Virus record (IMG/VR): IMGVR_UViG_3300028734_000021
Location: 4,094 to 68,093 of that record
DNA from: a virus
DNA length: 64,000 nt
Direction: 5' to 3' (one strand)
Shown here: piece after piece, positions 12,109 through 59,955 of the stretch
Layout of the letters: every line of letters begins with the position of its first letter
How positions within the stretch are numbered: the stretch's first letter is position 1
Translations under genes and position numbers: made by a program
The notes under the pieces: model-generated
What the model saw: only the letters and a program-made list of their open reading frames with translations
Databases searched by the model: none
Told to the model about the DNA's origin: nothing

Positions 12109-12138
12109 ACCATATTTTTTAAATTTTTTGGATATATA
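12109..12138 (+). promoter_or_regulatory. Phage promoter motif
   Basis: ACCATA-N15-GGATATATA, preceded by GTCTGAATG. Confidence 0.65.
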
Positions 12139-20077: not shown

Positions 20078-20523
20078 GGGGGTGTTTGGTTTTGACAGCA
20101 ATTTCAATAGGATTTAATGCAGCCGATGTTGAGTAAGTCATCGTTAAAAAGATTCACAATTATTAATCGACAAAAAACAAAACATTCAGAAGGATAACAA
20201 GGTTATTGCTTTTGTAAGTAACGTAGTTAAAAGTGCAATGTCTAAATGGAATGAAGTTGATGAAACTCCGGTTTATTCAATTAATCGTTCACAATTAGCA
20301 ATGGCTGTTTAATCTTAGATTTTTATTTTGTATTAAAAGGTTATGTGTTTGAGTAAAAACACTTTGGTGTGATTTGGAGGATAACTCACGTTTTCATTCA
20401 GTCCCAATATTTTGTTTGTTTTTAATTAATTGAAATGTTTAATCAATTAATATAAAATAAAATAAGCTGTAGATTTAAATTTGTTTGGTTGTTTGGACGG
20501 CGGTTCGACTCCGCCCACTTCCA
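20078..20523 (+). ncRNA. ssrA: tmRNA
   Basis: 5' GGGGGTG-TTTGGTTTTGAC; 3' TGGAC-GGCGG-TTCGACT-CCGCC-CACTTCC-A; G3:U70 Ala identity; tag frame 20169-20312 ending LAMAV*; CCA not encoded. Confidence 0.92.
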
Positions 20524-20699
20524 GGATTACAATGTAATATACCTTCACGTGGTGTAGTCTGTTTAAACTAAAATATTACAAATGAAAGAAGAAAGATTTA
20601 GATATTTTGAAAAAGACGCTTTTCAAAAAGTACAATACATCACATATTGAATACTCAATATCTTGATGAACGAATTGAAAAAGATTTAATTTAAAAAAT

Positions 20700-21266: not shown

Positions 21267-21338
21267 GGTCTTATCGAATATCGGTTAGTTCGTCAGGTTT
21301 TCATCCTGGAAAGTGGGGTTCGATTCCCCGTGAGACTA
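21267..21338 (+). tRNA. tRNA-Glu(TTC)
   Basis: GGTCTTA/TGAGACT acceptor; TCAGG-TTTTCAT-CCTGG anticodon arm; GGTTCGATTCC T arm. Confidence 0.88.
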
Positions 21339-21586
21339 CAAAAATTCTCACCGTATTATCAATTGAAGAACATAAAACAAGGATAAAACAATTTAGATAC
21401 CTTATTAAAGTTTCACAAAATTGACTATATAAATATCGTGAGAATTGTTTATTAAAATTGAGAGCTGTTACATTCACTCAATGAAAAAGTGTTTACCGTG
21501 CTTTGTTCAAACTTTTGTTTGGCACCCGTAACGGTTAACTGTTAATCTAACAGAAAATAAACATAAGTTTATTGAAATTGATTGGA

Positions 21587-21676
21587 GAAGAATAGGTGTG
21601 AGTGGTACTATGCACAGGAAAATAATTTTCAATAAAATAATTTTTCAGGGAATCGGTTCGAATCCGATATTCTTCA
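21587..21676 (+). tRNA. tRNA-like RNA with elongated anticodon arm (identity undetermined)
   Basis: Perfect GAAGAAT/ATTCTTC acceptor; ATCGG-TTCGAAT-CCGAT T arm; D loop AGTGGTA; anticodon arm replaced by a 13-bp AT stem with CAAT loop. Confidence 0.6.
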
Positions 21677-21993
21677 CAAGGAATTTTAGAAATAAAATTT
21701 CGTTTTTAAGTATATTAAATTAAGTTATAAGATGTTTTTAATGATAAATCATTAAAAATTTGATTTTCTATTTCTTTAATTATTTGGAAGTTGTTTGATC
21801 TGAATTAACAGGGATTTTGAGGAAATTACGGTATTTCCAAGCAACTTCTATTTATTGTTCTTGGGTTGGTTATTCACTTATCTATAAGAGAACTTTCTTT
21901 CAAGCAAGTAATAATGAATTTTTGGTCAATGTTGTAATTTTTGAACAAACCTAAAATTCATTTATTGAAAATTATTAAAAACAATATATTTTT

Positions 21994-22067
21994 GGGAATG
22001 TAGCTCAGTTGGTTAGAGCATCGCACTGTTAATGCGAAAGTCATTGGTTCGAGTCCAGTCTTGCCCG
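21994..22067 (+). tRNA. tRNA-Asn(GTT)
   Basis: TAGCTCAGTTGGTTAGAGC D arm; TCGCA-CTGTTAA-TGCGA; T arm; G73; two acceptor-stem mismatches. Confidence 0.85.
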
Positions 22068-22175
22068 CTAAACAATAATTTCAACGAAGCATGAAATATT
22101 TGTTGTAAGTTTAAAAACAACCGAGTTTTAAACTGAGAATATTAATTGTGGAGAAATTATTGTTTTTTAAAAATT

Positions 22176-22246
22176 TGTCCGATGGTGTAATGGTAGCACA
22201 CAAGTCTTTGGTTCTTGGTGTCCAGGTTCGAACCCTGGTTGGACAA
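22176..22246 (+). tRNA. tRNA-Gln(TTG)
   Basis: TGTCCGA/TTGGACA acceptor; CAAGT-CTTTGGT-TCTTG; CCAGG-TTCGAAC-CCTGG. Confidence 0.88.
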
Positions 22247-22328
22247 CAAATTTAAATAAATAAGTTCGTGAGAATGTCAGTATTTAAGTAATTCGTTTAT
22301 AGGTTTTGTGTTATATGTGTATTAAATT

Positions 22329-30632: not shown

Positions 30633-31055
30633 ATGGAAAACAAATATATCATTGATAATCCGAAAGATTTTATACTTGCTGGAAAATCGAATTTCACACT
30701 TGAAAATATTAAAACAAATGTTCATTTAACATTTAGTGTTACAAAAGTTGCTGAAAAACAAATGTATTATATTGGTGTTTGTACGAAATATGAAGGTTAT
30801 ATGTTTATTGGTTGTTTATATACCAATAAGGATTTGACAGAATTTTCATTCATTAAAGGAAAGAAATTAAATCCAGATGAAGAACAACTTTCAATCAAAG
30901 CATTTAATTATATAAAAGCAGATTATCTTGAAAGAAATATTCCCAATGAAAGTATGAAATTTTATCATCATGGTCATTGTTGTAGATGCGGACGAGTATT
31001 GACAACTCCTGAAAGCATAAAAGCAGGTATTGGACCATTTTGTGCTGGATTATAA
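30633..31055 (+). CDS. DUF6011-like zinc-binding protein
   Basis: C-terminal GHCCRCGRVLTTPESIKAGIGPFC. Confidence 0.7.
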   Translation: MENKYIIDNPKDFILAGKSNFTLENIKTNVHLTFSVTKVAEKQMYYIGVCTKYEGYMFIGCLYTNKDLTEFSFIKGKKLNPDEEQLSIKAFNYIKADYLERNIPNESMKFYHHGHCCRCGRVLTTPESIKAGIGPFCAGL

Positions 31056-31067
31056 ATCAATAATATT

Positions 31068-31295
31068 ATGGAAACATTAGTATATGAAATAAGAACAATT
31101 AATTCAAATTGTTATTGGAAACATTCACTTTATTCTAATGGAACATTATTCAGTGAATATTTGAAAGAAAAAATTACAAGAGGAAATTGTTCAATTGAAA
31201 CTATCAGAGAAAAAGAAAAAAGTCTAACTCAAGATCAAATTGAAAAATTCAAATTAAAAAATAAACAATATTTTTCATATTCTCAAACAATTTAA
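31068..31295 (+). CDS. Hypothetical protein
   Basis: Operon ORF. Confidence 0.6.
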   Translation: METLVYEIRTINSNCYWKHSLYSNGTLFSEYLKEKITRGNCSIETIREKEKSLTQDQIEKFKLKNKQYFSYSQTI

Positions 31296-31305
31296 AACCA
31301 ATATT

Positions 31306-31728
31306 ATGATAGTGCAAATGTCAATTTTAAGAAAAGAAAATAATGATATTAATCAATTGAATTTTATGTCAATTCAATTAGATGATGATGAAAAATATTT
31401 TTGGACTAATCAAATAACATTCACACCTGAAGGATTTATTGATTTTTGCAAAAGACAACTAAAAGAATTATTACAAAATGAAACTGAAAATTCAAAATTA
31501 CAATTATTTTTTGTTGAAGATTTAGAATCAGAAGCAAAATGCATTTATGATTTAAAAGAAGATTATGTTGTTATTTTTGAAAGCGAAATAAAAATCTATC
31601 ATGAAATTTGCGAACGTGAATTGAATTTTATTCATTGGCATAATTATGCAAAAGAGTTGAAATGTGATTACAAACACAGACAAGTGTCAATTCCAGATTT
31701 AAATAATTTCACAGGTTTTGACGTTTAA
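31306..31728 (+). CDS. Hypothetical protein
   Basis: Last + strand ORF before the repeat array. Confidence 0.65.
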   Translation: MIVQMSILRKENNDINQLNFMSIQLDDDEKYFWTNQITFTPEGFIDFCKRQLKELLQNETENSKLQLFFVEDLESEAKCIYDLKEDYVVIFESEIKIYHEICERELNFIHWHNYAKELKCDYKHRQVSIPDLNNFTGFDV

Positions 31729-31745
31729 AAACGAAATAAAAGCGA

Positions 31746-31801
31746 AATAAAAATCAGATTAAAACAAATTAGTTTATATTTGTTTTGATCTGATTTTATT
31801 T
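31746..31801. terminator. Long hairpin, likely terminator
   Basis: AATAAAATCAGATTAAAACAAAT / ATTTGTTTTGATCTGATTTTATT. Confidence 0.65.
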
Positions 31802-32112
31802 GAAAAACATGTTTACGTACCAGTAAATAATGAAAATAATGAACATATCAAGACATATATCAAGGAATTTAATTATATTACACATATGGTGTTTATTTAC
31901 AGGTGCGTTTTGTCTTCATATGTTTACTTACAGGTGCGTTCAAATGAATATTAAATTATTTTTGATACTCTCCGAAACTTGTTTGAAACTAATTTCCACA
32001 TAAATACGCACCAGTAAATTAGTCTTATATGTTATATTTCAAGACATATATCTTGTAATTAAATTCTATTCGATTATTATGCTTTTTTACTGGTGCGCTA
32101 TTTTGATTTGTA

Positions 32113-32155
32113 TACAAAAAATCCTGTCAGAACAAATCTGACAGGATTTTTTGTA
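32113..32155 (-). terminator. Intrinsic terminator (symmetric)
   Basis: TACAAAAAATCCTGTCAGA-ACAAA-TCTGACAGGATTTTTTGTA. Confidence 0.75.
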
Positions 32156-32208
32156 CAATAAATTACCTTGAATTAAGCAACTATTTTTCATTTGCTGTTG
32201 CACTTATA
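32113..32208 (-). ncRNA. Putative ~95-nt small RNA
   Basis: Bracketed by promoter motif and terminator; internal GCAAC/GTTGC hairpin; no ORF ends before the terminator. Confidence 0.4.
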
Positions 32209-32216
32209 TTGTATTA

Positions 32217-32246
32217 TATATATCCGAATAATCATTGAAATATAGG
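32217..32246 (-). promoter_or_regulatory. Phage promoter motif
   Basis: CCTATA-N15-GGATATATA on - strand. Confidence 0.65.
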
Positions 32247-32391
32247 CAAATTGGAAACTATTTTCAAGCTATTTTAAAACGCACCTGTAAAATATCAATA
32301 TATGTTGTAATTCAAGGCATATATCTTGTAATTAAATTCTGTTTGAATATGATAATAATTTACTGGTGCGTTTTTTTGTTTTGAAGTAAAA

Positions 32392-32465
32392 AAAATTACC
32401 GAATTTATATAATACTTAACTCCTTACTACAGTCGTCGATAAGTATTTTTAAATTCGGTAATTTT
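32392..32465 (-). terminator. Long hairpin after the 32936 gene
   Basis: AAAATTACCGAATTTA..AATACTTA / TAAGTATT..TAAATTCGGTAATTTT; A-run on + gives a U-tail on -. Confidence 0.6.
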
Positions 32466-32468
32466 ATT

Positions 32469-32936
32469 TTAGAACTTTTCCGAAAATTTTACTTCTTTTG
32501 AATTTTCCAAAATGCTTGCTTGTAAAGCAACTTCTTCATTTTTGAAAACTAATTTCGCAGCAGATAATTTTCTGTTTGAAATTTTCAACAAAGTATTTTC
32601 AACCAGGAATAAATTTTTGGTGAAATTTACTTTTTGAGAATTTGCAACAATGAATGCTTTCAAAGCAACTTCGTTATTTTTGAAAATCAATTTTGCAGCG
32701 GACAATTTTTTGGTTGAAACATTGTACAAAAGACCTTCAATCAAAAATAATTTTCGTTTTTCTGATTTTCTTTTCTTTTTTGTTTCGACAACAACTTCGG
32801 CAACAACTTGAGCAACAACTTGAGCAACAACTTCAGGAACAACTTCGATAACAACTTTTGGAGTACGTACTTTTTTAGTTTTTACAACTTCAGCAGGAAC
32901 GATAGAATTTTCGATTGAATTTTTAACTTTAGTCAT
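32469..32936 (-). CDS. Basic protein with two tandem ~46-aa domains
   Basis: LFLIEGLLYNVSTKKLSAAKLIFKNNEVALKAFIVANS / LFLVENTLLKISNRKLSAAKLVFKNEEVALQASILENS; VVAQ/VVAE repeats; own promoter and terminator. Confidence 0.8.
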   Translation of the reverse strand: MTKVKNSIENSIVPAEVVKTKKVRTPKVVIEVVPEVVAQVVAQVVAEVVVETKKKRKSEKRKLFLIEGLLYNVSTKKLSAAKLIFKNNEVALKAFIVANSQKVNFTKNLFLVENTLLKISNRKLSAAKLVFKNEEVALQASILENSKEVKFSEKF

Positions 32937-32985
32937 GATGTTTAATTTTTTTAGTGTTTATAATGTGTGTGTTATTATTGTATTA

Positions 32986-33015
32986 TATATATCCGTATAT
33001 TCTCGATTATATGGG
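32986..33015 (-). promoter_or_regulatory. Phage promoter motif
   Basis: CCCATA-N15-GGATATATA on - strand. Confidence 0.7.
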
Positions 33016-33211
33016 TAAAACGAAATTTATTTTCAAACTATTTTTGTTAAAACGCACCAGTATAATAACATATTTAAAACGCACCAGTAAAATACATTAC
33101 TTATGTACAAATCAAGCACAATATGTTACCATATTGTTTATATCGAATTTTGAATGATTTTTACTGGTGCGTTTTTATCTATTTGTTTCAAATCAGTTCC
33201 TTAATATACGA

Positions 33212-33242
33212 ACACGTATGTGTACATGTGTGCACACGTATG
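33212..33242. other. 31-bp alternating purine-pyrimidine tract at the array's symmetry centre
   Basis: ACACGTATGTGTACATGTGTGCACACGTATG. Confidence 0.8.
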
Positions 33243-33443
33243 GAGTTTCATTGAAGCGTACCTGTACTATAAATAAACAAGACAAAACGCACCTGTAAAT
33301 AAAGTCAAAATTTCAAGTATTTACAACTATCAAGACATATAACAAGTATATTGATATTGCAATATTATTTACAGGTGCGTTTTAACTTGAATCTGATACA
33401 GGTACGTATTTATGAAAATAGTTTGAAAATAAATTTCGTTTTG

Positions 33444-33473
33444 CCCATAATATCATGATTAATCGGATATATA
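33444..33473 (+). promoter_or_regulatory. Phage promoter motif
   Basis: CCCATA-N15-GGATATATA. Confidence 0.7.
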
Positions 33474-33555
33474 TAATATAAGAATACTACATTATAAATT
33501 CTTTAAATGTTATTTCAAACACTTAAATTTTTTAACAAAAGTTTTTCTTGTTTTC

Positions 33556-33585
33556 CCCATAATTATTAAAATATCGGGATATATA
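33556..33585 (+). promoter_or_regulatory. Phage promoter motif (second, tandem)
   Basis: CCCATA-N15-GGATATATA. Confidence 0.7.
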
Positions 33586-33637
33586 TAATACAAATAATTT
33601 ACACAACTTAATTTATAAACTTTTAAAACTTACAATC

Positions 33638-34315
33638 ATGTCAAAAAAAGAAAATGTTACCGTTCCTGAAGTTACCGTTCCTGAAGTTACCGTTCCTGAA
33701 ACTTCTGCTCCTGTTGAAATGACCATGACAGATGGTCTTGAATCAACTGATGATGTTCCCCTTCTTCCAACTGACGAAAATGGAAAAATTGATTTTTCGT
33801 CCCGTGCATATCTTGAATCACACAAACCCGTTGTTACTGTTGAATTTGCAAGTTCAAAGTTTGACCCAATTCGTGAAGCAAAAGTTCAGGATGGTTTGGA
33901 TGCTGTTTCTGAATTACTTGGTGACAAAATAAATCCACTGGTTATCCTTTTGGCTCGTTATTGGGAAATTAAACCTGCACGTTCTGCGATCAAGAAAATG
34001 ATCGACGCTGAAGCAAAAGCAAAAAATATACCTGAAGACAGGTATTTGCAAATTGATCTTCGCAAAAATGTTGATACCCTTGCTTCTTTGTCTCAGGCCA
34101 TTGACCGCATGAAATATGCAATTACATACTTCAAACCTCGTGCCGGTATCGATTCCAAACCTGTTTTCCAAATGATGTCAATCGATGGCGTTATGTTTAA
34201 CGTTGACTTGAATGTTTTGGCTATGGCTAAAGAAACTTACAAAGAAGACAGAGTTGCTCTGAAAGCTTTTTTAGCTGAAAATTCTGTAAAAGTTGTTATC
34301 GACGAATTACTTTAA
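33638..34315 (+). CDS. Hypothetical protein, paralog of 19423, sharing a C-terminal domain with 32936
   Basis: VTVPE x3 N-terminus; C-terminal MMSIDGVMFNVD..LAMAK..RVALKAFLAENS; two promoters. Confidence 0.85.
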   Translation: MSKKENVTVPEVTVPEVTVPETSAPVEMTMTDGLESTDDVPLLPTDENGKIDFSSRAYLESHKPVVTVEFASSKFDPIREAKVQDGLDAVSELLGDKINPLVILLARYWEIKPARSAIKKMIDAEAKAKNIPEDRYLQIDLRKNVDTLASLSQAIDRMKYAITYFKPRAGIDSKPVFQMMSIDGVMFNVDLNVLAMAKETYKEDRVALKAFLAENSVKVVIDELL

Positions 34316-34336
34316 TCAACTTACAAATACTAAAAT

Positions 34337-34366
34337 AAATGACCCGTTTTTAACGGGTCATTTTTT
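34337..34366 (+). terminator. Intrinsic terminator
   Basis: AAATGACCCGTT-TTT-AACGGGTCATTTTTT. Confidence 0.8.
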
Positions 34367-34698
34367 GTTTGAAACATGTTTACGTACCAGTAAAATTTTA
34401 TCATAATCACATTAAATTAAATTACTTGCAATATGTCTTGAAATACAAAACATAAGGTTATTTTACTGGTGCGTTTGAATACAAAATCATAGTATATATG
34501 TATATTATTCAAATCAATACATATATGATATTTCATTTAAACACACCTGTAGTATAATGAAACAAGACAAAACGCACCTGTAAAAAATTGATTAAAATGA
34601 CGTATTTGAAACAAACCTTGGTATTTGTCTTGAAAAATGATAAAACAAATAGTTTTACTGGTGCGTTTGAAAATAAATCGAAAATAACTCGAATTTTA

Positions 34699-34728
34699 CC
34701 CATACTTTTAGGATTAATCGGATATATA
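34699..34728 (+). promoter_or_regulatory. Phage promoter motif
   Basis: CCCATA-N15-GGATATATA. Confidence 0.7.
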
Positions 34729-34763
34729 TAATATTAGAATATACACTTTTAAAATATACTATT

Positions 34764-35009
34764 ATGATAGTCTGGAATGAATTTAATGAAAAAACTGACC
34801 TTCAAAAAATAATTGATTTGGTTGGAATGCAAACTGAACGTGAATCAAATCCAATTTTAGTAATGGTAAAATTTGCACTTTTTGATAATGTTTTTAGACC
34901 TTGTATGGCACATGTTAATTTATTCACAAATGTACCAAAAATTAATGTTGAAGGTATGTCTGGAAATGTTAAAATATCACATTGGACTGAAATTAATTTA
35001 CCTAAATAA
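34764..35009 (+). CDS. DUF551-like small protein
   Basis: N-terminal W and C-terminal ISHWTEINLP pattern. Confidence 0.55.
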   Translation: MIVWNEFNEKTDLQKIIDLVGMQTERESNPILVMVKFALFDNVFRPCMAHVNLFTNVPKINVEGMSGNVKISHWTEINLPK

Positions 35010-35017
35010 TATTTAAA

Positions 35018-35176
35018 ATGGAATATACTATTATCAAAAGTACTATTTGTAACGATGTTATTGCAAATATAAATGTACATTTAACTGAAGGTTGGAAAAT
35101 ATCTGGATCTTTACAAACAACAATTCTAAAAGGTTTCAATAACATAGAATATGCTCAGGCACTTATTCGTGAATAA
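35018..35176 (+). CDS. DUF1737-like small protein (52 aa, not in ORF track)
   Basis: MEYTII..INVHLTEGWKISGSL..YAQALIRE. Confidence 0.6.
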   Translation: MEYTIIKSTICNDVIANINVHLTEGWKISGSLQTTILKGFNNIEYAQALIRE

Positions 35177-35185
35177 TATTAATCG

Positions 35186-35219
35186 AATTTAGCTCGGAAT
35201 TAGTTCCGAGCTAAATTTT
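35186..35219 (+). terminator. Intrinsic terminator
   Basis: AATTTAGCTCGGAA-TTAG-TTCCGAGCTAAATT. Confidence 0.7.
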
Positions 35220-35552
35220 ACTCAAACCATATTTACGCACCAGCAAATTTTGATCATAATAACATACAATCATTTTCCTTATAATTCCACTTGAAAAATC
35301 AATTTACAAACTTATTTACTGGTGCGCTAATTTATATTCGATTGAATATATGTAATTTTTGCTCAAATACAATATAATATATATTTCATTCAAACGTACC
35401 TGTATTTTAGTGTATCAAGACAAAACGCACCAGTAAAAAACTAACTATATTTGAATATTTGAAATTTACTGGACATTTGTCTTGATAACTAAATTTAAAT
35501 TCATTTTTACTGGTGCGTTTAACTCAAATTTTTAAATATTTATCTATTTCTA

Positions 35553-35582
35553 CCCATATTTGTTGAATTAATCGGATATATA
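35553..35582 (+). promoter_or_regulatory. Phage promoter motif
   Basis: CCCATA-N15-GGATATATA. Confidence 0.7.
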
Positions 35583-35617
35583 TAATATAATAATATACAA
35601 TTTTAAAAAATACTAAA

Positions 35618-35743
35618 ATGGCACCACTTTACATCTTTATTTCGGTTATCACAATTATTTGTATTTTTTCTTTAGCAAACAAATTAGCTAAATTGAATAG
35701 CTCAAATTTTATTGTTAAAATTCTGAAAAATCTTTATTTTTAA
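35618..35743 (+). CDS. Small membrane peptide (41 aa)
   Basis: MAPLYIFISVITIICIFSLANK...; directly after promoter. Confidence 0.5.
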   Translation: MAPLYIFISVITIICIFSLANKLAKLNSSNFIVKILKNLYF

Positions 35744-35753
35744 ATTGAAATTT

Positions 35754-35876
35754 ATGGAATCAGTTTTTATATATTTAATAATATTTTTTGTTTGTTACTT
35801 GATTAAACATCATATACTAATAAAAAATAAAATATCAAATTTCATAAAATCATTTATTAATGCAAACAAAAAATAG
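35754..35876 (+). CDS. Small membrane peptide (40 aa)
   Basis: MESVFIYLIIFFVCYLIKHH... Confidence 0.45.
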   Translation: MESVFIYLIIFFVCYLIKHHILIKNKISNFIKSFINANKK

Positions 35877-35903
35877 TTCGGTAAACAAACCGAACTATTT
35901 TTT
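35868..35903 (+). terminator. Intrinsic terminator
   Basis: AAAAAATAGTTCGGT / ACCGAACTATTTTTT. Confidence 0.7.
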
Positions 35904-36037
35904 ACTCAATTTCAAATTAACGTACCAGTGAATTTTCATTATAATCACATAAAATTAATTTCCTTGTCAAATGTCTTGAAAACTAAATTTAAATCATATT
36001 TTACTGGTGTGTTTACTTGAAAATAAACTATGTTCTA

Positions 36038-36067
36038 CCCATTATTTAATGATTAATCGGATATATA
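36038..36067 (+). promoter_or_regulatory. Phage promoter motif
   Basis: CCCATT-N15-GGATATATA. Confidence 0.65.
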
Positions 36068-36100
36068 TTAATAAAAATACTAATTTAAAACAAATATATT

Positions 36101-36334
36101 ATGTCAGAAGAAAACTAAATTAAAATTCCATTAACATTTGAAGAGAAAAAACAATTGTTAAATGAAATTGTTAAAGATTATGGAATGGGATTTATGACTA
36201 TTCACGGATTTATTGCACAAATATTTACAATATCTTGGAATTAGTTTGAATTTAGTTTGATTGAACAAACATTAGATAAATGTTTTGAATTTAAACTTGA
36301 TTCTTTTCAAATATTTTTGGGATTAAAAAAATAA
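36101..36334 (+). pseudogene. Probable decayed small gene with two in-frame stops
   Basis: MSEEN*IKIPLTFEEKKQLLNEIVKDYGMGF...SWN*FEFSLIEQ...GLKK*, between promoter and terminator. Confidence 0.4.
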
Positions 36335-36459
36335 AATTAAGTAAAAATTAGCTCGAATCTTTAACGATTCGAGTTAATTTTTACTTAATTTTAAGATTTT
36401 CTGGTGCGTCAAATTGAAAAATAAAAAAAAAATAGTTCAGATTAACTCTGAACTATTTT
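36333..36459. terminator. Two hairpins at the convergence of + and - transcription
   Basis: Stem of about 27 bp at 36333-36392, and AAAATAGTTCAGA / TCTGAACTATTTT at about 36429-36459. Confidence 0.65.
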
Positions 36460-36497
36460 CACACAATAAAACACACTTATAAAACACAATATATTTT

Positions 36498-36986
36498 TTA
36501 TTTATCTACATTTGGACAAAAGTAACTTGGATGTGAATGTTCACCAAGAGTATGATTACAAACAATACAAACTTCATCATAATTTCGTACTCTTTCACCA
36601 ATGAAATTATCTGCATATGTTGATAATAACCATGGAATATCTATGTTGATATTTTTTGCTCGTATTATTATTGCAGCTTCTTTCGATTCTTGTTTGATAC
36701 AATTTTGAACCATATCATGAATATTTTTCTGACCTTCTTCATCTAACAATTGATCAAATTTTTTATCCAGCATTTCATCAATTTCATCAAGTTCATTAAT
36801 CATTTCATTTTCATCAGAATAAATAGATAAAGCTGCGATCAAACCATCAAAATCTTCTGACTCATCATAAGCATCAGCAAGTTCAGTTACAAATACTATT
36901 GAAAATTTAAAACGTTCAGCAAGAGATTGTAAATATTCACTACGAGTTTGAAACCCTTTTTTTATTGAAACTTCGTTTGTACTCAT
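36498..36986 (-). CDS. Acidic hypothetical protein with C-terminal Cys/His motif
   Basis: RSEYLQSLAE..EDFDGLI motif recalled from phage proteins; CIVCNH..H..C tail. Confidence 0.7.
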   Translation of the reverse strand: MSTNEVSIKKGFQTRSEYLQSLAERFKFSIVFVTELADAYDESEDFDGLIAALSIYSDENEMINELDEIDEMLDKKFDQLLDEEGQKNIHDMVQNCIKQESKEAAIIIRAKNINIDIPWLLSTYADNFIGERVRNYDEVCIVCNHTLGEHSHPSYFCPNVDK

Positions 36987-36987
36987 T

Positions 36988-37245
36988 TTATTTTGTTTTT
37001 AACATGTTATTCAATTCAAGTTTGATTCTTTTAGCATCTTCACCTCTCCAAGTTGAAGCATTTGAAAGAAAATAACGAACAATATCTGAAGCTGAGTCTT
37101 CACCAAATTTATCATTAACTGTTCGAAGTTGACTCATAGCATTTAAATATGGTACAGCTCCAAAATAAATATTTTTCCATGTTTTTCTTATGTCTTCTGA
37201 AATAAGAAATAATGAACGAACCGTAGTTGAATTAATATTTTTCAT
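36988..37245 (-). CDS. Conserved phage hypothetical protein
   Basis: WKNIYFGAVPYLNAM..VRYFLSNASTWRGEDAKRIK motif recalled from diverse phages. Confidence 0.75.
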   Translation of the reverse strand: MKNINSTTVRSLFLISEDIRKTWKNIYFGAVPYLNAMSQLRTVNDKFGEDSASDIVRYFLSNASTWRGEDAKRIKLELNNMLKTK

Positions 37246-37268
37246 AACTATTATATTTTATTATAATT

Positions 37269-37298
37269 TATATATCCTTAATTTTTAAACAATATAAG
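37269..37298 (-). promoter_or_regulatory. Phage promoter motif
   Basis: CTTATA-N15-GGATATATA on - strand, preceded by TCTGAA. Confidence 0.65.
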
Positions 37299-37321
37299 CT
37301 TTCAGATAAAAACTTTTAAAA

Positions 37322-37361
37322 ATAAAAATACTCGATTCAATAAAGAATCGAGTATTTTTAT
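37322..37361 (-). terminator. Intrinsic terminator
   Basis: ATAAAAATACTCGATTC / GAATCGAGTATTTTTAT. Confidence 0.7.
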
Positions 37362-37571
37362 TTAATCTTTTGGATTAATTACATCGGAAATTAATCTAAA
37401 TCTTATTGTTCTATATAAAATTTTTGTTCTTATTTTTTCTTTATTTCCAATTGATGGAATATCAAGTAATTTACAAATCTTTAAAAGATCATTTTTACTA
37501 AGATTTATTAATAATTTTTCACCTGATTCAGTTGAATTTTCAAGATATAACTTTTCAATAATTTCTTTCAT
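37362..37571 (-). CDS. Small protein, possible SAP-like DNA-binding motif
   Basis: LSKNDLLKICKLLDIPSIGNKEKI. Confidence 0.5.
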   Translation of the reverse strand: MKEIIEKLYLENSTESGEKLLINLSKNDLLKICKLLDIPSIGNKEKIRTKILYRTIRFRLISDVINPKD

Positions 37572-39026: not shown

Positions 39027-39056
39027 AATATATCCTGTTAATCAAATAAATATGGG
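39027..39056 (-). promoter_or_regulatory. Phage promoter motif
   Basis: CCCATA-N15-GGATATATT on - strand, preceded by GTCTGAATA. Confidence 0.65.
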
Positions 39057-39946: not shown

Positions 39947-42064
39947 TTATACGTTAAAAGAATTATTTAATTCATTATCTAATGGATTTTGACTTACTTC
40001 ATCATAAACATCATTAAGTCTTTTACCACTGATAAGATTTTGTTCAATTTCTTCAACATCAGTTTCATCAAATTTTATTAATTCACTACAATTTGTTTGA
40101 ATATAATTATATAAAAATTCTAAACCTGCTTTTATTCCAGGATATTCGAGAAAAGCTGCTTTTAATTTTTCCTGTAATGTTTTTATTTTGGTTGACATTG
40201 CTGATTGAGTGAATGTTTTATTTGTTGCTCCAAAACTTGCATAATAATCGGATAAAACAACACCCATTTCTTCTTGTTTATACATATTATTGGCATTCAA
40301 TTTTCCTCCACCAATAACATCATTTTTAACTTCTAAACCATATAACATTTTAAACAGTTTATAATCATATTTGTTAAATATTTTCTTCTTGGTAAATTCT
40401 TTTTTACCTGTATCTGAATCTATTTTTGTTTCAAATAAATTAAATAATTGTTTAACAGATTTATATAATTCTTCAAATTCAAATCCAATTTCAGCACTCA
40501 TACTTGAAGAAGCAACATTAGCCCAAATATCTGCATTTTGTCCACCTTCAGAACCTCCAATTATATCTGAATATTTACTTTCAGTAACAACATTTGCTGG
40601 TTTTTCAATACTTGACATTCCATCGAGTAATGTGTCAAGCATTTCTTTTGGAAGATCTTTTAATTCAGGATTATTTTTAAGAAAAGATTTTAATTGTCCA
40701 TCATAAAAATGTACAATTGTTGCCATTGAACTACCAGAAATAGTACCACCTGAACTAAGTTCATACATTCCTCTTTTAATTGCTCCAGTAACATATCTGT
40801 GTGCAAAACCATTAAAACTTATTGCTGAATTGGATATTTTTTGTGTTTTATACCATTTATCAATAGCTACTGATAAACCAACAAGACCATAAGCAACACA
40901 ATCATCATAAAGATGCATCATATTTAATTTTGAACAGGAATTATAAGCAATTCCTTTAACATATTCAATATTGGCTGAAGCCAACATTTCTTTTGGTTTT
41001 TGTTCTTCAACTGTTTCAAAATCAAAAATTTCAAACATAACATTTGTTATATCTTGATTACCTTTTAATTTTGATATTTCATTTGCCGATTCAATTTTAA
41101 TAGTATCAAGTTTATTAACTAAATCAGTAATTTTATTTTCAGGTGTTGCAAGTATTAAAAGTTTTTTTAATTGATTCAAATTATAATTAGATACTTCTTT
41201 TGGTAATAAATCAACTATTTCAGATATGTAACCACAAAGATTAGCATATTCTTGTTTTAACGTTAATGGTGCTATTTCAGTTTCAGTTTCATTATCCAAA
41301 TATTCATCAATATCAATTTCTTCTTCAACATCATTATAACTATCAATTTCTTCAAAATAATCTATTTTATTGTCAATTTCCATGTCTGGAAAATTAAGAA
41401 TCAATAATTTACGTAAAAGTTTCATTTTAGATACCAATGAGTTTGGATTAACTAAATTGAATTCATTTTCAAGAGCTTTTCGTTGTTCTTTTAATGATTT
41501 AAGTAACTCTGAATTTTTAATTTTTTCATCACTAACAACTTTTTCTTCTTTCCAATTTTTATCCTTATAAAGTTTAACAAATTTATTTTTAGTTAATTCA
41601 AGATTATCTATCATTTCTTGAGTTTTAATAACTAAATCCTTTTCGTTTGAAAATTTATAATTAGCAAGTTCTGATTTTAAAATATCCAATTGATTTTGAA
41701 GAACTTTAAATTGTGGTGATTTTTTCAAATAACTTTCAAGTTTTTCTTTTGCATGTCTTGAAAGAGCATTAGTTGTTGTTCCAACTTCTCCATATTTTTG
41801 CATTTTATTAAGAGTGACACTTTTACCTCTTTCCATAATATTATTATATTCTGAAGAAGAAACTTTATCTGTATAATGAATATCAGATTCTTCAGTAGAT
41901 AATTTGGATTTTTTTGTTTTATTAACAATAACTTTTTTACCTTCTTTTGTTGTTCCAATAACAACATCTTCATCATTACTTACTGGAATTTCACTTGCAA
42001 AAATTTGTTCATTATCCAAATAGGAATCAATATCAGGAATTTCGCTTTCAAAATCTTGTGTCAT
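39947..42064 (-). CDS. Large sigma70-family (group 3-like) RNA polymerase sigma factor
   Basis: ANIEYVKGIA..DDCVAYGLVGLSVAIDK..FNGFAHRYVTGAIKR (region 2); KLFKMLYGL..KQEEMG..TQSAMSTKIKTLQEKLK (region 4); ~360-aa N-terminal extension. Confidence 0.7.
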   Translation of the reverse strand: MTQDFESEIPDIDSYLDNEQIFASEIPVSNDEDVVIGTTKEGKKVIVNKTKKSKLSTEESDIHYTDKVSSSEYNNIMERGKSVTLNKMQKYGEVGTTTNALSRHAKEKLESYLKKSPQFKVLQNQLDILKSELANYKFSNEKDLVIKTQEMIDNLELTKNKFVKLYKDKNWKEEKVVSDEKIKNSELLKSLKEQRKALENEFNLVNPNSLVSKMKLLRKLLILNFPDMEIDNKIDYFEEIDSYNDVEEEIDIDEYLDNETETEIAPLTLKQEYANLCGYISEIVDLLPKEVSNYNLNQLKKLLILATPENKITDLVNKLDTIKIESANEISKLKGNQDITNVMFEIFDFETVEEQKPKEMLASANIEYVKGIAYNSCSKLNMMHLYDDCVAYGLVGLSVAIDKWYKTQKISNSAISFNGFAHRYVTGAIKRGMYELSSGGTISGSSMATIVHFYDGQLKSFLKNNPELKDLPKEMLDTLLDGMSSIEKPANVVTESKYSDIIGGSEGGQNADIWANVASSSMSAEIGFEFEELYKSVKQLFNLFETKIDSDTGKKEFTKKKIFNKYDYKLFKMLYGLEVKNDVIGGGKLNANNMYKQEEMGVVLSDYYASFGATNKTFTQSAMSTKIKTLQEKLKAAFLEYPGIKAGLEFLYNYIQTNCSELIKFDETDVEEIEQNLISGKRLNDVYDEVSQNPLDNELNNSFNV

Positions 42065-59580: not shown

Positions 59581-59955
59581 TTATTCTTTTGAGTTTGAAA
59601 ATAAAGCATCTAAAGATATTTGTTTTCCTTTTCCTCTTGTTATTTGTTTAAAATGTAATTTCATATCATTTGAAATTATCGTAGTATAAAAAGAAAAAAG
59701 ATTATCTGATTTTTCTGGATTAAATTTATTCCATTTTTGCCAAGCTTCAGATACTCCAAAATTAATACAGGCATTTAAATCACATTTATTATTTGAATTA
59801 AATGTTGTTGCAAAATTTTTAGCTATTTTTTGAAATAAAACAACTAATTTTTCTGTAGGAACTCCAAGTCCTATTGACTTATCATATTCAGTCAATAGGA
59901 TTTTTGGATCAAGATAAATATTTTGTTTCTTTTTATCAATATAATTTTCAACCAT
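59581..59955 (-). CDS. Late-transcription sigma factor (T4 gp55-like)
   Basis: YLDPKILL..LFQKIA..WNKFNPEKSDNLFSFYTTII. Confidence 0.65.
   Translation of the reverse strand: MVENYIDKKKQNIYLDPKILLTEYDKSIGLGVPTEKLVVLFQKIAKNFATTFNSNNKCDLNACINFGVSEAWQKWNKFNPEKSDNLFSFYTTIISNDMKLHFKQITRGKGKQISLDALFSNSKE

Follow-up and report, generated by a model that had tools for sequence, protein, structure and literature searches.

Outward-facing gene cassettes behind paired-arm repeat units in an uncultured T4-like jumbo phage

Integron arrays comprise attC sites, the integrase IntI and the Pc promoter, and their inverted-repeat elements measure ~60-140 bp. The terminal redundancy of SPO1 and the early regions of T4 pack many short operons into a few kb; these consist of small genes of unknown function and have a strong promoter and a terminator each. 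In BIME-1/RIP (REP-IHF-REP) elements and in P1 parS, inverted protein-binding arms flank a central motif over ~90-100 bp, and BIMEs follow the 3′ ends of genes. PeSLs (promoter-early stem-loops) of T4-type phages are composite terminator and promoter motifs that recur between the genes of hyperplastic regions, mostly beside orphan genes; PeSL recombination deletes, inserts and replaces genes, according to experiments in RB49/phi1 and to inference in other T4-like phages (PMC2839356, PMC4122927). Here we describe an island of ~94-bp paired-arm units, promoters and short genes in a 64,000-nucleotide stretch of viral DNA (the window; bases 4094-68093 of the 68,093-base IMG/VR record IMGVR_UViG_3300028734_000021, which is classed as linear and ~30% complete).

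Genes of the window lie on the + strand up to 31728 and on the - strand from 36498, and the two blocks converge on a 4.7-kb island. Within it lie ten ~94-bp units and seven near-identical promoters, along with hairpin terminators and six short cargo sets. We consider it reasonably likely that this is a co-regulated, accessory and modular island, probably expressed early, of a T4-like jumbo phage, in which the arms of the units serve as protein sites and PeSL-like recombination acts between modules. From its gene content we assign the source genome to an uncultured T4-like jumbo phage, of which the record is a fragment, because the window encodes T4-type PHROG families, namely portal (phrog_213), prohead protease (phrog_207) and DNA end protector (phrog_429), and because the portal is related to those of the jumbo phages PAU and PTm1, albeit at only 27-29% identity. 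Further PHROG matches in the window are ribonucleotide reductase, dCMP deaminase, NAD ligase, helicase and DNA polymerase. All phage records with which it was compared are likewise fragments.

Paired-arm units and the promoters they precede

The arm 13-mer ACGYACCWGTAAA, allowing up to 2 mismatches, has 25 matches in the window against 1.85 expected (largest shuffle, 7), all of them within 31815-36409. Tightened to at most 1 mismatch and extended to the full 68,093-base record, the search gave 22 matches, none outside this range, and a reversed-pattern control gave 0. Two inverted arms set 80-82 bp apart, start to start, make up a unit of 93-95 bp, and ten such pairs (U1-U10) are present. Five extra arms were detected 27-31 bp outside a unit, each in the orientation of the adjacent arm, and one terminal half arm, at 36397, marks the right edge of the island.

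Units and arms (no strand assigned unless given)
31815-31908: unit U1, arms 31815-27 and 31896-908, with an extra arm at 31927-31939 (ACGYACCWGTAAA search)
32006-32098: unit U2 (ACGYACCWGTAAA search)
32279-32371: unit U3 (ACGYACCWGTAAA search)
33052-33172: unit U4 (33079-33172) with an extra arm (33052-64)
33287-33407: unit U5 (33287-33380) with an extra arm (33395-33407)
34382-474, 34541-53 and 34572-666: unit U6, extra arm and unit U7
35235-327, 35394-406 and 35425-518: unit U8, extra arm and unit U9
35920-36012: unit U10
36397-36409, - strand: terminal half arm, with counterparts in the related loci L029 (9210) and L030 (8539)

Within the units, a TCAAGACA-type motif occupies unit position 34, on the promoter-proximal side, in 7/10 cases; U4 and U8 have degenerate versions and U5 a shifted one. 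Alignments of the oriented units lengthen the motif to CCTTG-N7-GTCTTGA. Unit interiors are near random, with an identity of 0.63-0.73 within genomes and 0.63 between genomes, compared with 0.61 after shuffling. Structured RNA or DNA hairpins were considered and rejected, as folding of the ten units paired the arms only and gave inconsistent interiors.

This geometry recurs among relatives. Searches with the 225-aa core protein of the island recovered 4 viral and 27 metagenomic loci, and the island layout is repeated in at least 20 related metagenomic loci, the core protein being at most 61% identical in any locus with enough length for comparison. Two core-protein homologues, P0002 and P0003, show 80-82% identity and lie on contigs of up to 88 kb. 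Pairs or arrays of ACGYACCWGTAAA arms surround the core gene in L009, L010, L025/L053, L027, L028/29, L030, L031, L035 and L044/45. Across 60 units in 11 loci, with spacings of 76-88 bp allowed, the arms are 80 (18 units), 81 (21), 82 (16), 83 (3) or 84 bp (2) apart. In distant loci the commonest G+C-containing 9-mer is an arm-like word, again in inverted pairs. A de novo pair search (CACC core, at least 10/12 complementary positions, spans of 50-130 bp allowed) over 22 non-duplicate loci, a total that leaves out the near-duplicates L038, L041, L046 and L049, found 107 CACC...GGTG pairs, of which 73/107 span 86-89 bp and 20/107 span 115-121 bp, the distance from extra arm to far arm; block-shuffled sequences gave 0. 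The arm itself varies by lineage (ACGCACCAGTAA, ACACACCATAAA, TCACACCATAAA, GTCCACCGGTAT, GCGCACCGGTAA and ACGCACCGGAAT) and the span stays unchanged. Direct repeats of the arm, four or five at an exact 27-bp spacing, precede the core gene in a distant lineage (L043 5320-5428, L041 64-145).

Paired-arm matches were also collected from viral contigs; 10 of these 14 loci have no array and look like chance. Bacterial genomes contain 33 single matches, by our estimate about the number expected by chance, and 0 arrays, and a host origin of the element was rejected on these grounds. The island has no blastn match, and the 225-aa core protein no tblastn match, among the cultured phages of INPHARED, and the arm and promoter strings have no match in the literature searched. 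Because the span is fixed, the arm sequence varies with lineage, the interiors are free and bacterial arrays are absent, these comparisons point to the units being double-stranded DNA sites recognised by a protein that is specific to the phage lineage and requires a rigid spacing; an RNA, hairpin or host-factor site does not fit the unit data.

Leaving aside the second promoter of each tandem pair and L010 8632, every island promoter at the nine loci compared has an arm in fixed orientation 35-69 bp upstream of its -10-like box, with the inverted partner arm a further 80-82 bp upstream. With up to 3 mismatches, the promoter 19-mer TAATCGGATATATATAATA has 8 matches against 0.28 expected; the island accounts for 7, of which 2 are on the - strand and 5 on the +. 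A composite box-spacer-box search of the 64 kb yielded 14 distinct sites where 0.34 were expected, with 7 in the island and 6 in the + block. By manual count, the layout is a CCCATA-type box at the -35 position, a 17-bp spacer and a TATATA-type -10 with a G two bases upstream. The CCCATA box does not match the -35 sequence TTGACA, and the promoter is also unlike the Bacteroidota -33/-7 motifs. A sigma-70 scan gave 61 sites against 51.6 expected, which is no enrichment.

Promoters
32212-32246, - strand: P-L2, with a CCTATA box, spacer and GGATATATATAATA
32981-33015, - strand: P-L1, found by the 19-mer and composite searches
33444-78 and 33556-90, + strand: P-R1a and P-R1b, a tandem pair also present in L009, L010, L027 and L030
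34699-34733, + strand: P-R2, found by the 19-mer and composite searches
35553-35587, + strand: P-R3, found by the 19-mer and composite searches
36039-36072, + strand: P-R4, with 3 mismatches and a degenerate -10-like part

At these same promoters of the nine loci, distances from the arm end to the GGATAT -10-like box fall at 35 bp (2 cases), 44-47 bp (10), 53-59 bp (17) and 69 bp (2). These steps of ~10-12 bp suggest that, as at class I activator sites, a constant face of the helix is kept.

The promoter class itself is not confined to the island: further copies lie at 12110, 16132, 18962, 22407, 29170 and 30558 on the + strand, ahead of + block genes, and at 39028 on the - strand. Outside the island it precedes replication and other non-structural genes, and 0 composite sites lie in the structural genes at 39.1-64 kb; the island therefore uses the non-late promoter class of the phage, and its copies match the motif best. 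The arms, not the promoter class, set the island apart. Promoters outside it have no arms, often carry an additional CTGAA element immediately ahead of the box and may form a second regulatory subclass.

Read outward from the centre (33173-33286), unit, promoter, cargo, terminator and the next unit or unit pair succeed one another in both directions. An earlier, sequence-only reading of part of the window had noted this order, and the arm, promoter and hairpin searches confirm it on both sides; the pattern extends past the part then described, the repeats spanning 31815-36409, and the promoter spacing then put at 26-37 bp measures 26-35 bp by coordinates, from the last arm end to the CCCATA-type box. 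Behind each promoter come one or two short open reading frames (ORFs), or ~95 nt without a credible ORF, and then a hairpin with a U-run. From a terminator, the conserved promoter is reached within ~225-450 bp, with one or two units in between. The eight hairpins folded, each with a U-run, have free energies (dG) of -15.8 to -30.4 kcal/mol and z-scores of -5 to -12.

Terminators (dG in kcal/mol)
31750-31797, + strand: closes the left (+) gene block; dG -22.0, z -7.0, then a U-run
32111-32157, - strand: ends the short non-coding cassette; dG -30.4, z -10
32388-32465, - strand: after the 155-aa gene; dG -25.1, z -5.5
34337-34363, + strand: after the 225-aa gene; dG -15.8, z -5.0
35185-35218, + strand: after the 81-aa and 52-aa ORFs; dG -20.0, z -6.4
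35868-35903, + strand: after the 41-aa and 40-aa peptides; dG -17.7, z -8.9
36336-36389, + strand: after the pseudogene; dG -29.1, z -11.8
36425-36460, - strand: closes the right (-) gene block; dG -16.1, z -5.5

Cargo genes and their turnover

The cassettes carry short genes, of which the 225-aa gene alone is universal among the related islands.

Cargo
32108-32205, - strand: short non-coding transcript candidate, from promoter to hairpin, ends inferred
32469-32936, - strand: 155-aa gene, with homologues 64-67% identical in L029 and L030
33638-34315, + strand: 225-aa core gene, in every related island
34764-35009, + strand: 81-aa ORF, 52% identical to L030_83
35018-35176, + strand: 52-aa ORF with a weak DUF1737 match
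35618-35876, + strand: 41-aa and 40-aa hydrophobic peptides, the latter with homologues in L029 and L030
36101-36334, + strand: pseudogene in one frame, interrupted in frame by TAA at codon 6 and by a later TAG

The two longest products share a ~42-residue C-terminal domain, as had been proposed from the sequence, and BLASTP supports this at 1.25e-7. The domain is modelled as two strands and two helices and occurs twice in the 155-aa protein, for which AlphaFold2 (AF2) predicts a disordered, basic N-terminus and two copies of a ~45-aa strand-strand-helix-helix domain; the AF2 model of the 225-aa protein has a pLDDT of 74.5. In-frame tandem repeats of 12-nt and 15-nt units, at 32777-32869 (-) and 33656-33713 (+), encode the low-complexity N-termini of the 155-aa and 225-aa proteins, respectively. 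Both proteins gave 0 Pfam and PHROG matches and no usable match in the ESM Atlas. Foldseek returned nothing with E <0.9 for their models against the PDB, and a VIA-wide fold comparison, with best Z-scores of 4.9 (225-aa) and 2.5 (155-aa), yielded no fold match. Across this and five related islands, 0 of 18 cargo proteins scanned reached the Pfam cut-off, a scan that left out the transmembrane peptides and the left-arm ORFs of L009, L010 and L025.

Other assignments of the sequence-only reading fared variously. Its DUF551-like label for the 81-aa protein finds no backing, neither this protein nor its L030 homologue having a Pfam match at E up to 5. The DUF1737-like label for the 52-aa protein corresponds to a match at E 0.0045, which at 17.3 bits against a cut-off of 24 is weak. 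The two transmembrane peptides are plausible, judging from N-terminal hydrophobic stretches in the 41-aa and 40-aa products, and the pseudogene is confirmed, with 55% tblastn identity (5e-24) to the intact 76-aa L030_76 and two in-frame stops in a single frame. The small RNA candidate does have a promoter, ~95 nt without a credible ORF and a terminator; it belongs to no Rfam family at gathering score, and an Rfam scan of 31500-36700 as a whole found nothing at that score. Such orphan genes often have anti-host or anti-defence functions in other phages.

Cargo differs between the window and the two relatives with the same flanks, L029 and L030, where synteny extends to a 140-aa gene upstream and to 162-aa and 85-aa genes downstream. 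All three share the 155-aa and 225-aa genes, and their rightward cassettes (product lengths in aa) compare as follows.

Rightward cassettes
Window: 81+52, then 41+40, then pseudogene
L030: 95, then 41+83, then 76
L029: 97, then 40+79, then 78+178

In L030 the counterpart of the window's 81-aa protein is the homologous 83-aa protein, found one cassette further on, behind a transmembrane peptide. The 52-, 95-, 97-, 79- and 178-aa proteins have no counterpart among these three islands, and the small RNA-like cassette of the window is missing from both L029 and L030. A gene for a DUF6011 protein forms the first leftward island cassette in L009 and lies outside the island, on the other strand, in the window. 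Both the content and the position of cargo thus vary among relatives, and identical cargo, which would have refuted the earlier reading, was not seen.

Whole intergenic modules are repeated within genomes, with 73% identity over 399 bp in the window and 83% in L009, 88% in L010, 87% in L029, 91% in L030 and 83% in L045. In 12/16 cases a module is most similar to a paralogue within its own genome (73-91% identity) and not to the module at the corresponding position in another phage; the exceptions are W_m3, L030_m1, L029_m1 and L010_m3. We read this within-genome similarity as the signature of recombination or conversion between modules; the homogenised stretch is the whole 170-420-bp module and not the unit alone, and homologous recombination is therefore indicated.

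Contigs from four runs were compared with 31000-37500 at a likeness of at least 88. The joints 34730>34958 (side 49) and 35020>35182 (side 30), both in run X3, are short-sided and too weak to count, a hint of co-occurring variants with different cargo. A further joint, 36500>37247, occurs in runs X3 and X8 with 12 other letters between and sides of only 24 letters; it would correspond, weakly, to a variant that lacks the 162-aa and 85-aa genes beside the island (36498-37245, - strand). The 23 runs with the sequence are all represented by DNA contigs, and 0 are RNA runs.

Interpretation of the island and candidate regulators

The island is built from repeated modules of a terminator, one or two units and a promoter. 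In the mechanism we propose, the arms would be sites of a lineage-specific DNA-binding protein. This protein would bridge or wrap ~88 bp, perhaps over a bend at the central CTTG...GTCTTGA motif, and would act on RNA polymerase at all cassettes together, either as an on-switch or as a shut-off. Homologous recombination between repeated copies of these 170-450-bp modules could duplicate, delete and exchange the orphan genes they flank. The sequence-only reading had offered a co-activated, earliest-expressed region and a cassette-shuffling platform as alternatives. All cassettes have the same promoter type and the same upstream repeat, and co-regulation therefore fits. The promoter class also occurs outside the island. 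Variable cargo and within-genome homogenisation agree with shuffling; a site-specific mechanism is not supported. Each alternative is partly right, and the two are best merged into one reading, a PeSL-like modular island.

Several observations weigh against this proposal. Copies of the promoter class outside the island have no arms, and in double modules the terminator-proximal unit has no promoter of its own, so that units are not simply promoter elements. The distance groups partly reflect shared ancestry of paralogous modules, and the 53-59-bp group is broad. The two conserved island proteins, of 155 and 225 aa, have no fold match in the PDB and no recognisable fold. The relatives are distant, and their cargo differences could be ordinary divergence; recombination is read from patterns of similarity and not seen directly. 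Expression is probably early, a label that draws on analogy and on the absence of the promoter class from the structural block.

Other explanations of the units account for parts of the same evidence. It is unlikely that they are topological or nucleoid-organising elements, that is, gyrase or bending-protein sites like enterobacterial REP-IHF-REP between strongly transcribed cassettes: units do stand directly after terminators and between transcription units, some have no adjacent promoter, and two inverted arms around a conserved central motif over ~94 bp presumably resemble BIME/RIP elements, but the arms co-vary with phage lineage, are not palindromic themselves and form no arrays in bacterial genomes, and the promoter-proximal arm keeps a fixed orientation and stepped promoter distances. 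A replication origin or partition site, whose iterons or centromere boxes would be the arms, seems less probable again. Clustered repeats of protein-binding type, some in direct arrays with 27-bp spacing (L043), a position at the switch of gene strand and cumulative GC skew, and a geometry of arms around a central motif reminiscent of P1 parS would agree with such a site; yet gene orientation explains the skew switch, the units alternate one-for-one with promoters and terminators over 4.7 kb instead of being concentrated, and none of the neighbouring genes was recognised as an initiator or ParB type.

We likewise see little prospect that the units are selfish miniature repeats (MITE- or REPIN-like) spread into intergenic spaces. 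Short terminal inverted repeats, a uniform ~94 bp, many copies, strictly intergenic positions and near-identical copies within a genome (maximum 0.99-1.00, in L009 and L010) are what such repeats would show, but near-random interiors leave no shared element body, no target duplications were seen by eye in the flanks, one island per genome fragment holds all copies, the place relative to terminators and promoters is the same in phages whose core protein is only 58-61% identical, and span and orientation are kept across arm variants. The integron-like logic that the sequence-only reading entertained, with units as sites for a recombinase that inserts and excises cassettes, is scarcely more credible than that. 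Repeated inverted-repeat elements between small, variable, mostly orphan genes, and cargo that varies among relatives, do recall such a platform. However, a site-specific mechanism is unlikely because Phage_integrase (PF00589) was found in 0/4 phage fragments (controls, 14/14 genomes; the fragments are 25-36% complete and a distant gene is possible) and because genes are replaced inside operons too. A scan of 45 window ORFs turned up no recombinase, promoters and terminators (seven and eight in all) are supplied by each cassette for itself and the cassettes face two ways, whole modules are homogenised and not units alone, and many boundaries hold two units and an extra arm.

Within the preferred reading of a PeSL-like modular island, we tentatively entertain a more specific version, in which the unit is a new phage cis-element and docking site of a lineage-co-evolving protein. 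The protein would loop or wrap a fixed ~88 bp and contact RNA polymerase from a set helical face; one protein would gate the island, and cassettes would be exchanged without an integrase. Candidates for this protein are the two conserved island proteins, the DUF6011 protein encoded nearby and a factor delivered by the virion, perhaps acting with a divergent sigma-like 705-aa protein encoded 3.5 kb away. The DUF6011 protein (window 30633-31055, +; L009 4627-5046, -) has a C-terminal Cys/His-rich motif, is encoded within 6 kb of the island at 6/16 loci and is a candidate DNA-binding partner of the units.

The 705-aa protein (39947-42064, -) is conserved within 6 kb of the island at 8/16 loci, together with adjoining 148-aa and 114-aa genes. 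Against the PDB, phmmer found nothing and a profile reached FliA region 2 at E 0.83; in its family, 4/19 members match Pfam Sigma70_r2, with a best E of 0.013. These similarities are suggestive only, and the protein may be a divergent phage sigma factor for the CCCATA / GGATATATA promoters. A 124-aa ORF (59581-59955, -) with a weak Sigma70_r2 match (15-22 bits against a cut-off of 24) recurs in 4/4 phage fragments and may be a gp55-type late sigma, for which it is a candidate.

Elsewhere in the window, ARAGORN detected a phage-encoded tmRNA at 20078-20526 (+), with a predicted tag peptide (Rfam RF00023, 62.2 bits; gathering score 47). Three tRNA genes, tRNA-Glu(ttc), tRNA-Asn(gtt) and tRNA-Gln(ttg), come next at 21267-22247 (+), in DNA where long ORFs are absent.

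Comparison with known systems

The promoter class, the fixed-span upstream unit and the terminators together provide a regulatory grammar for a clade of uncultured giant phages, one that allows accessory or early genes to be predicted in metagenomic contigs. The ~100 natural variants of the unit are a resource for finding the binding protein and for studying how a protein-DNA interface co-evolves under fixed geometry. The island would extend the PeSL idea of repeated regulatory modules as recombination scaffolds for orphan genes beyond the enterobacterial and vibrio T4-like phages for which it was described.

Like integrons, the island separates small, variable genes by imperfect inverted-repeat elements. 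Unlike integrons, it shows no integrase in the four fragments, each of its cassettes has its own promoter and terminator, the cassettes run in two directions and boundaries often hold two units, and the arms lack the attC core, GTTRRRY. With the host-takeover early regions of SPO1 and T4 it shares many short operons of small genes packed into a few kb; we know of no paired-arm upstream unit described there. The arms differ from those of BIME-1/RIP and P1 parS in forming no hairpins, in belonging to one phage clade and in their fixed orientation and distance to a promoter.

The island resembles PeSLs in its T4-like host phage, its orphan-gene cargo, its terminator and promoter composites and the homogenisation of its modules within genomes. 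It is unlike them in placing a conserved ~94-bp unit, or two and an extra arm, of fixed span and with lineage-specific arms, between terminator and promoter, in gathering all copies in one island and in having a promoter without TTGACA at -35. PeSL recombination also involves mini-circles and crossovers; in the island, recombination is read from similarity between sequences. Against this background, the clade-wide and geometrically rigid paired-arm element looks new.

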